NCBI RefSeq assembly: GCF_054482525.1
Contig: NZ_CM137006.1
Length of the DNA: 64,000 nt
Strand: one strand, 5' to 3'
A program made the position numbers. Every line of letters begins with the position of its first letter. Within the stretch, counting starts at the first letter, position 1. This document shows positions 42,001-48,000 of this stretch, one piece after another.

Positions 42001-45000
42001 CATGCAGGACGTTGTTATTGTTGCCGCTACGCGCACACCGATTGGCTGTTTTCATGGCGCTCTCGCCCCACTTTCTGCGGTTGATCTCGGCGCTGCCACC
42101 ATCCGTTCATTGCTGGAGAAAACAGCACTTGCAGCAGAACAGATCGACGAAGTGATTTTTGGTCAGGTCCTGACTGCCGGAAGCGGACAAAATCCGGCAC
42201 GGCAATCGGCGCTCAAAGCCGGGTTAAGCCACGATACACCCGCCGTTACCATCAACCTGGTATGTGGTTCCGGTCTGAAAGCAGTACACCAGGCCGTACA
42301 GGCGATCCGTTGCGGTGATGCACAGATAATTATCGCAGGTGGCCAGGAAAGCATGAGTAACGCGCCCTATTTTATTGATGGCGCACGGGCAGGTTTACGC
42401 CTCGGGCATACCAGCATGAAAGACAGCGTGGTGCATGACGGACTATGGGACGCTTTCAATGATTACCACATGGGCATTACTGCAGAAAACCTGGCGCAAA
42501 AATATGCCATCAGTCGCGAGCGACAGGACACATTCGCGCTACGTTCTCAGCAAAAAGCCGCTGCCGCAATGGAAGCCGGGCGCTTTGCAGACGAAATTAC
42601 TCCGGTCAGCGTACCACAAGGTAAAAAACCACCACGCAGGGTAAATACCGACGAACAACCACGTTCCGGGACGCAACTGGAAAAACTAGCACAACTGAAA
42701 CCGGCCTTTCTTCCGGGGGCGGGAAGCGTCACCGCAGGAAATGCTTCTTCCATCAATGATGGTGCCGCCGCAGTCATGTTAATGCGCGCCAGCAAAGCTG
42801 CCGAACTTGGCCTCCCAGTGCTGGCTCGGGTGGCTGGTTATGCCGTTTCTGGCGTCGATCCTGCCTTTATGGGCATTGGTCCGGTCGCCGCTACCCGCGA
42901 ATGTCTTAAGCGTTGCGGATGGACGCTGGAAGATATTGATCTTATTGAAGCCAACGAGGCTTTCGCAGCGCAGGCGCTGGCCGTTGGCGACGAACTGAAC
43001 TGGGATTGCGACAAAGTGAATGTTAACGGCGGCGCAATCGCACTTGGGCATCCTATTGGCGCTTCCGGTTGCCGCATTCTGGTCACTCTCATTTATGAAA
43101 TGGCGCGACGTAATGCGCAAAAAGGGCTGGCGACGCTGTGCGTCGGTGGCGGTCAGGGCGTGGCGCTGACACTGGAAAGAACCACAGGAGAACACCATGC
43201 AAACTGAACAATTTGCGGTACTGGGCGCCGGATTGATGGGCGTGGGGATTGCCACTCATTTCGCCCGCTTTGGTCATGATATCTGGCTGTACGATACCGA
43301 GCAGAGCCGGATTGCAGAAATCCACGTAGTTGCAGGCGGAATTCTTGATGAGCTGATTAGCTGCGAACAGTTTACTGCCCCGGAAAAAGAGAATGTGCTT
43401 AAACGTCTGCACGGCACGACTTCTCTTGCAGACATCGCCGACTCGCAACTACTGATTGAGGCGATCCCGGAGCGACTTGAACTAAAACACGCATTATATA
43501 CCGAGCTTGAAACGCTTATTTCTCCTGAGGCCATTGTCGCCAGCAATACCAGCGGTCTGCCGCCCGATGATCTGGCCGCGAAGATGCGCTACCCGCAACG
43601 ACTGCTGATCGCCCATTTCTGGCATCCGCCGCACTTCATTCCACTTGTGGAGATTATCCCCGGCAGCGTTACCGAGCCAAAGCATTTGCACTGGCTGCAG
43701 CACTTGCTTGTGTCACTGCAACTGGAAGCAGTGTTGCTGGATCGCGCTGCGCCAGGATTTGTCGGCAACCGTCTGCAATTTGCACTGTTGCGTGAAGCCC
43801 TGCATATCGTAAAAAGCGGCATCGCCAGTGCAGAAGTGGTGGATCAGGTGATGCGCGCCTCGCTTGGGCGACGTTATGCCATGGTCGGCCCGCTGGAGGC
43901 CGCCGACATGACCGGACTTTCGACGGTGCAGGATATTTGTCGCCATCTGCTCCCTGAACTAGCGACTGGCAGCGACATGATGTCATTAGTTGCCGAAAAA
44001 GTGGAACGTGGAGACATCGGCGTACGTAGCGGTCAGGGATTTTACTGCTGGGATGAATCGCGGAAGCAGTACATCCAGCAGCGTCGGGAACATCAACTTC
44101 GCTTCGCCCTTAAACCATAACTTCTCTCGCTGTACCCACTATAACAACGATATTGAGGAGTCCCGATGAGTGTATTAATCGCCCTTGCCGCGCTTGGGCT
44201 GCTAATGCTGGCAGCCTATCGCGGATACAGCGTTATCCTTTTTGCCCCCATCGCAGCATTAGGCGCTGTTCTTGTCACCGATCCGGGGGCCGTTGGCCCA
44301 GCATTTACCGGCCTGTTCATGGAAAAAATGGTCGGCTTCGTGAAATTGTACTTCCCGGTGTTTCTGCTCGGGGCCGTGTTCGGAAAACTGATTGAACTTT
44401 CAGGATTTTCTCGTTCGATTGTCGCTGCTGCAATCAACATTCTCGGCCGGCGGCATGCGATTCCGGTGATTGTGCTGGTATGTGCATTACTCACCTATGG
44501 CGGAGTGTCGCTGTTTGTGGTGGCATTTGCCGTTTATCCGTTCGCGGCTGAACTGTTCCGCCAGAGTAACATCCCAAAACGACTTATACCGGCAACGGTG
44601 GCCCTGGGGGCATTCTCTTTTACTATGGACGCTCTGCCCGGCACGCCACAAATTCAGAACATTATTCCTACCAGTTTCTTTGGCACCAACGCCTGGGCCG
44701 CGCCGTGGCTGGGGCTTATTGGTTCACTGTTTATCATTGCCGTCGGGCTTATCTATCTGGAGCGGCAGCGTCGTAAAGCGCAGGCAAAAAATGAAGGTTA
44801 CGGCACAGAGTTACTTAATGAACCTGAAACACCAGATAACATCAATTTACCGAACCCACTCATTGCGATTTCACCATTGATTCTGGTGGGGCTGTTGAAC
44901 TTGTTGTTTACCTGGTGGATCCCTGTTTGGTACGGTGCGAGCCACCAACTGGAGTTGCCGGGACTTGCCGCCCCGATTACCACAGATGTCGCCAAAATCA

Positions 45001-48000
45001 CCGCAATCTGGGCCGTCGAAGCTGCGCTCATTGCCGGAATTTTGCTGGTAGTGATTTTTGGATATCGCAATATTCATGGAAGACTGGCAGAAGGAAGCCG
45101 TACAGCGGTAGGCGGCGCAATTCTGGCTGCGATGAACACCGCCTCAGAATATGGCTTCGGTGCGGTTATCGCCGCCCTACCCGGTTTTCTGGTGCTCTCA
45201 AAGGCGCTGGCCGCCATTCCTGATCCATTACTCAACGAAGCCATCAGCATCACCACACTTGCCGGAATTACCGGTTCAGCGTCCGGCGGGATGAGTATTG
45301 CTCTTGCGGCGATGTCCGACACTTTTATTGCCGCTGCGCACGCTGCCAATATTCCACTGGAAGTTTTTCACCGCGTGGCATCTATGGCCAGTGGCGGCAT
45401 GGATACATTGCCCCATAACGGCGCTGTGATCACCCTGCTGGCAATTACTGGGCTGAGTCACCGTCAGGCTTACGGCGGCATCTTCGCAATTACGATCATT
45501 AAAAGTCTGGCCGTGCTGTTTATCATCGGCGTGTACTACACCACCGGCATTGTCTAAGGAAAATCATCATGAATTTACAAGGTAAAACTGCGCTGGTGAC
45601 GGGGTCCACCAGCGGTATCGGACTCGGTATTGCTCAGACACTGGCAAACGCTGGCGCGCAAGTGATCCTCAACGGCTTCGGTGATGTTGACGCGGCAATC
45701 AATGCGGTTTCTCGTATGGGTAAAACGCCTGGCTATCATGAGGCAGACCTCAGCGATGAATCGCAAATTATCAACATGATGGCCTACGCACGGCGGGAAT
45801 TTGGCGGTGTGGACATTCTGGTGAATAACGCCGGGATCCAGTATGTCTCCCCGGTTGAATCTTTCCCTGTAGAAAAATGGAACGCCATTATCGCTATCAA
45901 TCTCTCTTCTGTCTTTCACACCACGCGTCTGGCACTGCCAGAAATGCGCACTCGTAACTGGGGTCGGATCATTAACATTGCCTCTGTGCATGGGCTGGTA
46001 GCGTCGAAAGACAAATCAGCTTATGTTGCGGCAAAACATGGCGTGGTGGGACTCACAAAGACCATTGCTCTGGAAACTGCGCAGACGGGTATTACCTGCA
46101 ACGCGCTCTGCCCTGGCTGGGTGCTGACGCCGCTGGTACAACAGCAGATTGATAAGCGCATTGCGCAAGGCGAAGATGCGGAAAGCGCGCGTGACGCCTT
46201 ACTGGCAGAAAAACAGCCTTCTCGTGAATTTGTGACTCCGCAACAACTGGGTGAACTGGCGCTGTTTCTCTGTTCGGATGCGGCAGCACAAGTGCGTGGG
46301 GTGGCGTGGAATATGGATGGCGGTTGGGTAGCGCAGTAAGTGTTCGCCGGATGACACGTCATCCGGCAATGCTTTACGATTTCAACTGGTAATCAAGCGT
46401 AATTTCAGCTTTCAGTACCTGAGAAACCGGGCATCCTGCTTTTGCTTTCTGGATGATGCCGTCAAAGGTGGAGGTATCAATACCCGGCACCGCAACTTCG
46501 CTCTTCAGTGCGATTTTAGTAATCGCAAAACCGGCATCCACTTTATCCAGCGACACATCGGCGGTGGTATCAATCGATGTTGGCGTGAATCCCGCTTCCC
46601 CCAGCATTAATGAAAGCGCCATTGAGAAACATGCGGCATGCGCTGCGCCAATCAGTTCTTCAGGGTTGGTTCCTTTTTCGCCTTCAAAACGCGTGTTAAA
46701 TCCATACGGCTGTTGGTTCAGCACGCCACTCTCGGTGGATACTGTTCCCTTCCCGCGTTTGATATCGCCTTCCCAGTGTGCCTGACCTTTCTTATGGATT
46801 GTCATTGTTGCTCTCCTGTGGGCTTAAAAAGGAAATTATAGACTACGTGAGAAACAGCACGAGGATAAGCAGGATATTCCGAATAAAATCCGGCGAAAAC
46901 ATTATCTCTGTACTTAAATTAAATTCCCACAATAGATAACAGGAAATATATGACTCAAAAGATATTGTATCAATATTAATCGATTCACACCAATAACAAT
47001 CCCTATGAATATCATAGTGTTAAAATATAAAAATTATCAACCAGGACTAATCTTAACAACGAAGCGGCAAATATTTGCCATGCTGAATGTGCTTTATAAA
47101 TCTGCGATCCGTAGCAGACACCATAAATACACAGACACGGAGAATCACTATGTTTACTTATTATCAGGCAGAAAATTCAACAGCAGAACCCGCTCTGGTT
47201 AATGCCATTGAGCAAGGCCTTCGGGCAGAGCACGGTGTTGTCACTGAAGATGACATTCTCATGGAGCTGACCAAATGGGTGGAAGCTTCTGATAACGACA
47301 TCCTCAGTGATATCTACCAGCAAACGATCAATTATGTGGTCAGTGGCCAGCACCCTACGCTTTAAGGTGCTATGCTTGATCGGCAACCTAATTTAGGGGT
47401 TTAGCACGTGTTTCTTCGCTACGGCGATGTTGTCCTTAAAACTAGCAACAGGATTGAGGAGTTAAAATGAAATCGAACCGTCAGGCACGTCATATTCTTG
47501 GACTGGACCATAAAATTTCTAACCAGCGCAAAATAGTTACCGAAGGTGACAAATCCAGCGTGGTAAATAACCCAACCGGCAGAAAACGCCCCTCTGAAAA
47601 GTAATTCATAACCATCAGTCCTCAATGACGATTAAACACCATTGCCTGCGCAATGGTGTTTTTGTTTTTATCTGCTTTATACTTGGGGCCGACGCCCTGG
47701 CGGTAAAGCAAAGACGATAAAAGCGTGCCAGGGATGGATATTCAAAAAAGAGTGAGTGACATGGAACCAAAAACAAAAAAACAGCGTTCGCTTTATATTC
47801 CTTACGCTGGCCCTGTACTGCTGGAATTTCCGTTGTTGAATAAAGGCAGTGCCTTCAGCATGGAAGAACGCCGTAACTTCAACCTGCTGGGGTTACTGCC
47901 GGAAGTGGTCGAAACCATCGAAGAACAAGCGGAACGAGCATGGATCCAGTATCAGGGATTCAAAACCGAAATCGACAAACACATCTACCTGCGTAACATC

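Follow-up and report, generated by a model that had tools for sequence, protein, structure and literature searches.

A divergent GntP-family permease in the ddpF-osmC islet of some Escherichia coli strains, a probable importer of D-3-hydroxybutyrate

What does a permease carry when its gene lies between two dehydrogenase genes of a small catabolic cluster? The question is raised by a gene at positions 44166-45557 of a 64,000-nucleotide stretch of Escherichia coli DNA (NCBI RefSeq assembly GCF_054482525.1, contig NZ_CM137006.1; hereafter the window). An earlier note, made from the sequence alone, had described its product as a 463-residue polytopic protein without a signature that could be named with confidence, and had guessed that it is GntP-like and imports the substrate of the surrounding pathway. 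Our analysis points to an inner-membrane carrier from a GntP branch of the ion-transporter (IT) superfamily, most likely taking up (R)-3-hydroxybutyrate for catabolism by the enzymes of its own operon, a reading to which we give a probability of roughly 0.7. The gene itself is real but ordinary: it has been annotated before and encodes a known kind of transporter. Its substrate is plausible, and we infer it, like the direction of transport, from comparative gene context, namely the linkage to bdhA and the catabolic neighbours.

The reality of the gene is readily established. The open reading frame has exactly the extent that the earlier note gave it, and both Kyte-Doolittle hydropathy and an AlphaFold model describe an all-helical polytopic membrane protein. 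It is not a chance reading frame, because 2628 sequences make up its cluster at 90% identity, and when 1.84 billion representatives were scanned exhaustively with HMMER, 3286 clusters at 50% identity matched with E ≤ 1e-3, 618 of them at E ≤ 1e-30. In a 90%-clustered collection, its relatives number at least 8000 proteins. In RefSeq, the protein and its relatives go under the name 'GntP family permease'; elsewhere, 'D-beta-hydroxybutyrate permease' is also in use.

Which transporter family does it belong to? Searches with curated models gave no direct answer, so that the missing signature holds at this level: Pfam returned nothing above threshold, with the GntP_permease model PF02447 (gathering score 22.5 bits; the same search gives GntT 629 bits) not matched even at E ≤ 10, and neither NCBIfam nor the sequences in the PDB gave a match at E ≤ 10. 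A Pfam match to DUF3169 (20.8 bits against a cut-off of 31.6) was rejected as an artefact of hydrophobic composition. None of the 120 nearest homologs has an entry in the precomputed Pfam field, and BLASTP against E. coli GntT gave a weak, colinear alignment that spans 159 residues at 25% identity (query 69-224, GntT 68-221). The link to GntP carriers came from comparing profiles. We aligned 53 diverse homologs of full length, which share 32-71% identity with the query, and set this alignment against the five E. coli K-12 GntP paralogs (GntT, DsdX, GntU, IdnT and GntP); hhalign joined the two end to end over 415 columns (2-440 against 1-439) with 99.4% probability and an E-value of 4.2e-21, at about 18% identity. 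Individually, 39 of the 53 homologs match PF02447 (E ≤ 0.01, best E 1.1e-17), and the homologs P0123 and P0131 carry a precomputed match to it; the other Pfam matches in the set were CitMHS (14), Na_H_antiporter (6) and DctM (1). Full-length profile homology and these bridging homologs therefore make the permease a divergent GntP-family member, which by sequence comparison appears to sit on a deep branch of the family. The GntP-like guess is thus borne out, in agreement with the RefSeq name.

The substrate is suggested by the company the gene keeps. In the window it lies, as had been noted, between dehydrogenase genes: one codes for a protein of the 3-hydroxyacyl-CoA dehydrogenase (3HCDH) family, the other is bdhA, for 3-hydroxybutyrate dehydrogenase (Table 1). 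We scanned one genome per GTDB species with a nine-sequence alignment and, out of at least 593 loci, examined the 80 with the best matches (permeases 69-99% identical), using the window's own proteins as queries for the neighbours. Of the 54 loci with a permease identity of 74% or more, 52 have a gene for an ortholog of BdhA (69-94% identical) on the same strand, 14-120 bp downstream of the permease gene; the two exceptions are second copies in genomes that also hold a bdhA-linked copy. Overall, 57 of the 80 loci have this arrangement. The 53%-identical member P0123 lies among genes for a short-chain dehydrogenase/reductase (SDR), a 3HCDH protein, a thiolase, a sigma-54 activator and CoA-transferase subunits A and B, which is the enzyme set found around the E. 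coli gene. At the loci of 69-72% identity (Burkholderiales, Xanthomonadales, Bradyrhizobium), some of those without bdhA adjoin genes for esterases of the poly-3-hydroxybutyrate (PHB) depolymerase family (L068, L078), PhaC (L088) or a 667-residue CoA-transferase (L080), and at L066 and its relatives a divergent PAS/sigma-54 activator stands beside the permease. Such an activator adjoins the permease in 52 of the 80 loci. Taken together, these neighbourhoods support the guess that the protein imports the pathway substrate, and the clade that holds the E. coli permease appears, from its gene neighbourhoods, to be specifically associated with 3-hydroxybutyrate genes.

The closest parallel is found in Pseudomonas. 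At 49 loci of the genus, the permease is 74-79% identical to the E. coli protein (tblastn, residues 1-463); the genus permeases as a whole are 74-82% identical, have the same length of 463 residues and lie directly 5' of bdhA on the same strand. The activator lies directly upstream on that strand, and the order activator-permease-bdhA matches PA2005-PA2004-PA2003 and PP_3075-PP_3074-PP_3073. This gene order, seen across the genus, and the locus tags in the literature suggest that PA2004 and PP_3074 belong to these orthologs, with the same putative function. One publication lists both as orthologs of each other under the name 'probable D-beta-hydroxybutyrate permease', and as predicted Crc targets (PMC3003667). 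PP_3074 has been named bhbP; CbrB binds its upstream region, and its mRNA drops in a cbrB mutant (PMC6296734). In random-barcode transposon sequencing on 1,3-butanediol, whose catabolism runs via 3-hydroxybutyrate, fitness values were -0.9 for PP_3074, -2.5 for bdhA and -1.8 for the activator (bioRxiv 10.1101/2020.07.04.188060). PA2004 is cited as a putative 3-hydroxybutyrate importer, its pathway being under the control of HbcR and RpoN (bioRxiv 10.1101/2024.12.18.629020), and a 2026 study of 3-hydroxybutyrate catabolism in P. putida leaves uptake unaddressed (PMC13390443). The regulators differ: Pseudomonas uses a PAS/sigma-54 enhancer-binding protein, whereas E. coli, Klebsiella and Citrobacter have a divergent LysR-family gene. 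Unlike in Pseudomonas, the enterobacterial permease sits in a six-gene operon with scoAB, a thiolase gene and the 3HCDH-family gene.

This larger operon raises another possibility. The permease could be a general ketone-body carrier with acetoacetate as its main or an equal substrate, feeding the CoA-transferase ScoA/B directly and taking the place of AtoE, the short-chain fatty acid and acetoacetate carrier of the E. coli atoDAEB operon, which also encodes a CoA-transferase and a thiolase. The operon does have scoAB and a thiolase gene for acetoacetate, and Pfam and NCBIfam scans and the annotation of strain PCN033 gave no AtoE-type carrier in the islet; acetoacetate and 3-hydroxybutyrate are similar in size and charge, and the permease gene stands in line with scoAB and a thiolase gene in both Edwardsiella (L016) and P. 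oryzihabitans (L057). AtoE would be the analogous uptake step of an acetoacetate-type catabolic operon, but appears to belong to another protein family. About 40 Pseudomonas species, however, pair the permease only with bdhA and a dedicated activator, with no scoAB or thiolase homologs detected in flanks of up to 7 kb on each side, and the hydroxy acid is therefore indicated as the substrate under selection. We regard acetoacetate as the main or equal substrate as rather unlikely; such a carrier is compatible with (R)-3-hydroxybutyrate import.

Could the range of substrates be broader still? A permease for short-chain hydroxy acids at large, among them (S)-3-hydroxybutyrate, 3-hydroxyvalerate, 3-hydroxyisobutyrate and lactate, would give the 3HCDH-family enzyme a second substrate or the other enantiomer to handle. 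The gene for this enzyme, directly upstream of the permease in the window, recurs with it in several genera (L009, L010, L057, L063, L076, L090), and its product has a free-acid dehydrogenase among its closest relatives. All its NCBIfam matches stay below cut-off; the best, with 220 bits against a required 500, is 5-formyl-3-hydroxy-2-methylpyridine-4-carboxylate (FHMPC) dehydrogenase, a free-acid enzyme that ranks ahead of 3-hydroxybutyryl-CoA dehydrogenases, and the closest PDB sequence, 4om8, is an FHMPC dehydrogenase as well (E 8e-49). Its substrate might be (S)-3-hydroxybutyrate as the free acid, or else (S)-3-hydroxybutyryl-CoA. A 3HCDH-family enzyme that oxidises (S)-3-hydroxybutyrate would be a possible precedent, but our literature search found none. 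Related permeases beside a beta-keto-acid cleavage enzyme (BKACE) gene (a 39%-identical member) and HisD-family genes suggest varied small hydroxy and keto acids. Against so broad a range stands the fact that the (R)-specific BdhA is by far the tightest and most frequent partner, and we hold a general hydroxy-acid permease to be unlikely, somewhat more so than the acetoacetate carrier.

More distant family members were seen in other surroundings. Members 39-46% identical to the query lie beside genes for BKACE and a cupin, or an IclR regulator (L092 104-2992, L091 3-2353). The wider family, as these neighbourhoods hint, may serve other small 3-oxo and 3-hydroxy acids.

The kinship with GntP carriers, and the RefSeq family name that reflects it, invite a different objection, that the protein transports gluconate, another sugar acid or D-serine and that its place in the operon is incidental. 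Homology to GntT, GntU, GntP, IdnT and DsdX is full-length and colinear, size is similar (438-463 residues), and both groups have the P-G at about residue 158, GSA(S/T), and N or D as a polar residue at the second hairpin. Yet the profiles agree at only about 18% of positions, the E. coli permease falls below the Pfam model, and N165 and R403, invariant in its own family, have no counterpart in GntT. Its context is a pathway for a 3-hydroxy monocarboxylate and not for sugar acids or D-serine: linkage to bdhA is near-universal in close orthologs, and no sugar-acid kinase, dehydratase or dsdA-type gene was found in the 80 related loci. We rejected a gluconate carrier on this gene context and consider the whole sugar-acid and D-serine alternative highly improbable. 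The subfamily stands far from the sugar-acid carriers, and its ties are to 3-hydroxybutyrate genes; hence the family assignment does not lead to a class with an unrelated, well-defined substrate, the outcome that the earlier note had named as contrary to its guess.

Secondary carriers are reversible in principle, so that export of 3-hydroxybutyrate or acetoacetate, as overflow or detoxification, also deserves a word. The partner genes are all catabolic (BdhA, CoA-transferase, thiolase), and some relatives adjoin genes for PHB-depolymerase-family esterases, of which extracellular ones would free monomer outside the cell. To our knowledge, E. coli does not make PHB, which also counts against export. 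We think an exporter extremely improbable, even more so than a sugar-acid carrier.

Several points weigh against 3-hydroxybutyrate import all the same. Our literature search found no transport assay for any member of this permease family, and the sole genetic signal, the fitness of PP_3074, is modest and was obtained on the precursor 1,3-butanediol, not on 3-hydroxybutyrate. The E. coli permease itself fails PF02447 and reaches only 16.3 bits with a small hidden Markov model built from the five K-12 paralogs (filters off; family members -2 to 44 bits). At 69-72% identity, bdhA lies downstream in just 5 of 26 loci, leaving 21 without an adjacent copy (two contigs are too short to judge). In the two exceptional second copies, from Pseudomonas sp. 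Bc-h and Pseudomonas sp. RIT-PI-q (L048 7001-8389 and L087 7001-8389), a 74%-identical permease lies directly 3' of a histidinol-dehydrogenase (HisD)-family gene, near a LacI-type regulator. This neighbourhood suggests a different substrate for the paralog; specificity may thus shift at fairly high identity, because these copies adjoin a HisD-family gene and a LacI regulator instead of bdhA. Finally, the coupling ion and the elevator mechanism proposed below are extrapolated from other families.

How might such a carrier work? An AlphaFold2 model built from the 53-sequence alignment is of high quality (mean predicted local distance difference test score, pLDDT, 92.8; predicted template-modelling score, pTM, 0.90; zero segments below 50). 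Its fold matches are all elevator-type carriers, the majority from IT-superfamily families: ArsB (score 26.0, 391 residues aligned), the TRAP transporter SiaQM (23.1), Pho90 (21.3), Drosophila INDY (19.8), LaINDY (19.4), the AbgT-family YdaH (16.3), VcINDY (15.4) and, at about 11, concentrative nucleoside transporters. Foldseek returns the same set with TM-scores of 0.46-0.60. In the model, the permease has the IT-superfamily elevator fold, with a scaffold and a transport domain containing two hairpins and broken helices; the helix pairs 138-172 and 398-428 are the expected hairpins, and a further helix is broken at 370-371, within the predicted stretch 369-372. An internal repeat was not detected in the sequence when the N-terminal half (1-215) was compared with the C-terminal half (226-463) by hhalign (E 0.15, probability 0.4%), a result still compatible with structural pseudo-symmetry. 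Sequence identity to the IT-superfamily elevator carriers (ArsB, TRAP SiaQM/DctM, the DASS carriers VcINDY and INDY, AbgT YdaH, Pho90) is 8-17%, and, unlike TRAP systems, the permease has neither a periplasmic binding protein nor a Q subunit. Neither the PDB sequence search (E ≤ 10) nor the fold searches returned a GntP-family structure, only other families, and for this reason a residue-level mechanism cannot be transferred from the solved carriers.

Three motifs stand out. PGTPQIQN, which also served as a search pattern in the relatives scan, coincides with a helix break at 150-162 of the model and would form the tip of the first hairpin; in the hhalign register, its P158-G159 aligns with the invariant P-G of GntT, and N165 is invariant across the 53-member alignment and has no GntT counterpart. 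In the predicted broken helix, G370-S371-A372-S373 aligns with GSAT of GntT, with S371 invariant. The predicted second hairpin contains the invariant residues R403 and P416 and the nearly invariant H402, D413, H417 and G419, and H417-N418 aligns with N-D of the GntT motif HVND. R403, without a counterpart in GntT, is a candidate carboxylate ligand. Residue roles, like the coupling ion, we infer from such comparisons.

The proposed pathway would then run as follows. The permease would import (R)-3-hydroxybutyrate, possibly acetoacetate or the (S)-enantiomer too, probably with a cation and likely by H+ symport; in those GntP carriers that have been characterised, H+ is the reported coupling ion. 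The transport step would be an elevator movement of the domain with the two helical hairpins (PGTPQIQN, DTLPHNG) and the broken helix (GSAS). Inside the cell, BdhA would oxidise 3-hydroxybutyrate to acetoacetate, the ScoA/B-type CoA-transferase would convert acetoacetate to acetoacetyl-CoA, and the thiolase would split this into two molecules of acetyl-CoA. The divergent LysR regulator presumably induces the six-gene operon.

Table 1. Features of the islet and of its permease gene, in window positions
Feature	Position	Strand	Remarks
Whole islet, 6.8 kb, seven genes	39559-46373		Fills the ddpF-osmC spacer; comparison with K-12
LysR-family regulator	39573-40484	-	Pfam HTH_1, LysR_substrate; divergent
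Divergent control region, 141 bp	40485-40625		AT-rich; one sigma-70-like match at 40568-40596
3-oxoacid CoA-transferase subunit A	40626-41333	+	TIGR02429, 244.8 bits, above cut-off
3-oxoacid CoA-transferase subunit B	41336-41992	+	TIGR02428, 327 bits, above cut-off
Acetyl-CoA C-acetyltransferase (thiolase)	42002-43207	+	Pfam Thiolase_N, Thiolase_C; TIGR01930, 501 bits
3-hydroxyacyl-CoA dehydrogenase-family protein, 307 aa	43197-44120	+	Pfam 3HCDH_N, 3HCDH; overlaps the thiolase end by 11 nt
Shine-Dalgarno GAGGAG	44155-44160	+	5 nt 5' of the permease ATG; direct sequence reading
Permease gene	44166-45557	+	ATG start, 463 aa; divergent GntP-family / ion-transporter-superfamily secondary carrier, probable D-3-hydroxybutyrate importer
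Codons of residues 158-165, PGTPQIQN	44637-44660	+	Most conserved N-half motif; predicted first-hairpin tip
Codons of residues 367-375, GITGSASGG	45264-45290	+	Predicted broken helix 369-372
Codons of residues 402-419, HRVASMASGGMDTLPHNG	45369-45422	+	Predicted second helical hairpin
bdhA, NAD-dependent (R)-3-hydroxybutyrate dehydrogenase, SDR	45569-46339	+	11 nt 3' of the permease; PRK12429, TIGR01963

The permease gene is part of a chromosomal islet (Table 1), and its placement inside an island in the earlier note was accurate: the ddpF-osmC spacer, filled here by 6.8 kb, measures only 55 bp in K-12, where it holds a palindrome resembling repetitive extragenic palindromic (REP) sequences (L089 1558-1612). 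The islet replaces most of that spacer. Of 5426 complete E. coli genomes, 231 carry the islet, among them O145:H28 strains of Shiga toxin-producing E. coli (STEC). From 40626 to 46339, the window is 100% identical to E. coli PCN033, and from 2582 to 64000 about 99.98%. The order in PCN033 is ddpF, LysR (opposite strand), CoA-transferase A and B, thiolase, 3HCDH, permease, 3-hydroxybutyrate dehydrogenase and osmC (opposite strand). GC-rich REP-like palindromic pieces lie at the junctions, GACGCGGCATCCGGC on the left (39559-39572) and GCCGGATGACACGTCATCCGGC on the right (46340-46373), and the islet contains no integrase, insertion sequence (IS) element or tRNA. Our literature search turned up nothing published about the ddpF-osmC islet of E. 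coli.

The six plus-strand genes are separated by -11 to 45 bp and thus form one operon. BdhA is assigned by 371 bits to PRK12429 (cut-off 258) and 343.5 bits to TIGR01963 (cut-off 307), and the two CoA-transferase subunits activate acetoacetate. The LysR regulator, whose position is kept in Citrobacter, Pluralibacter and Klebsiella, is presumed to be the activator of the operon. In the control region between them, promoter-like matches are no more numerous than in shuffled sequence, which makes for weak promoter evidence.

The full cluster of LysR, scoAB, thiolase, 3HCDH-family, permease and bdhA genes also occurs in Citrobacter (L010) and in K. pneumoniae, where it adjoins budABC; Pluralibacter (L015) has the same cluster, but a 3HCDH match was not detected there. 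The Klebsiella example (L093, NZ_CP074582.1) is a 120-kb record labelled as a non-mobilizable plasmid, with the seven genes next to budA-alsS-budC. Its gene content looks chromosomal, and the record may be a misassigned chromosomal segment. Such Klebsiella 'plasmid' matches might imply an origin of the islet from a mobile element or plasmid, but in view of the chromosomal budABC neighbourhood and the non-mobilizable typing we rejected them as evidence of mobility.

Two stretches elsewhere in the window deserve mention. Positions 1-2581 do not match PCN033 and carry genes of filamentous-phage type, with one product that has a zonular occludens toxin domain and another that has a secretin N-terminal domain. 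Only 5 of the 5426 complete E. coli genomes contain 80% or more of these positions, and in PCN033 their place is taken by an ISNCY fragment, a hipA remnant and hipB. From about 58000 to 61000, GC content is low (0.36-0.39), and PCN033 has one intact and one truncated gene for leucine-rich-repeat proteins there, between ompC and narU.

No current concept is challenged by this permease; it does expose an annotation gap, in that a large, well-conserved transporter subfamily is missed by Pfam and NCBIfam, and the generic label 'GntP family permease' is potentially misleading. Ketotic hosts contain 3-hydroxybutyrate in abundance, and the breakdown of bacterial PHB sets it free. If the permease does import it, about 4% of sequenced E. 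coli strains would carry a complete module for the use of ketone bodies or PHB monomers, with the permease as the entry step, and the module would be apparently general in Klebsiella pneumoniae and Citrobacter sedlakii. A further-reaching proposal can be offered only tentatively: the clade of 3286 clusters, whose best-conserved members escape the curated Pfam and NCBIfam models, may be a functionally distinct, family-level GntP/IT branch for the uptake of ketone bodies and small 3-hydroxy and 3-oxo acids, with N165, S371, R403 and H417 as its binding signature, and E. coli, Klebsiella and Citrobacter may consume both enantiomers of 3-hydroxybutyrate with the help of the 3HCDH-family enzyme. 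Should that be true, the use of both enantiomers would be a strain-specific nutritional trait, found in O145:H28 STEC and in PCN033, a porcine extraintestinal pathogenic E. coli (ExPEC), with host ketosis or a PHB-producing microbiota as the sources of the two enantiomers.

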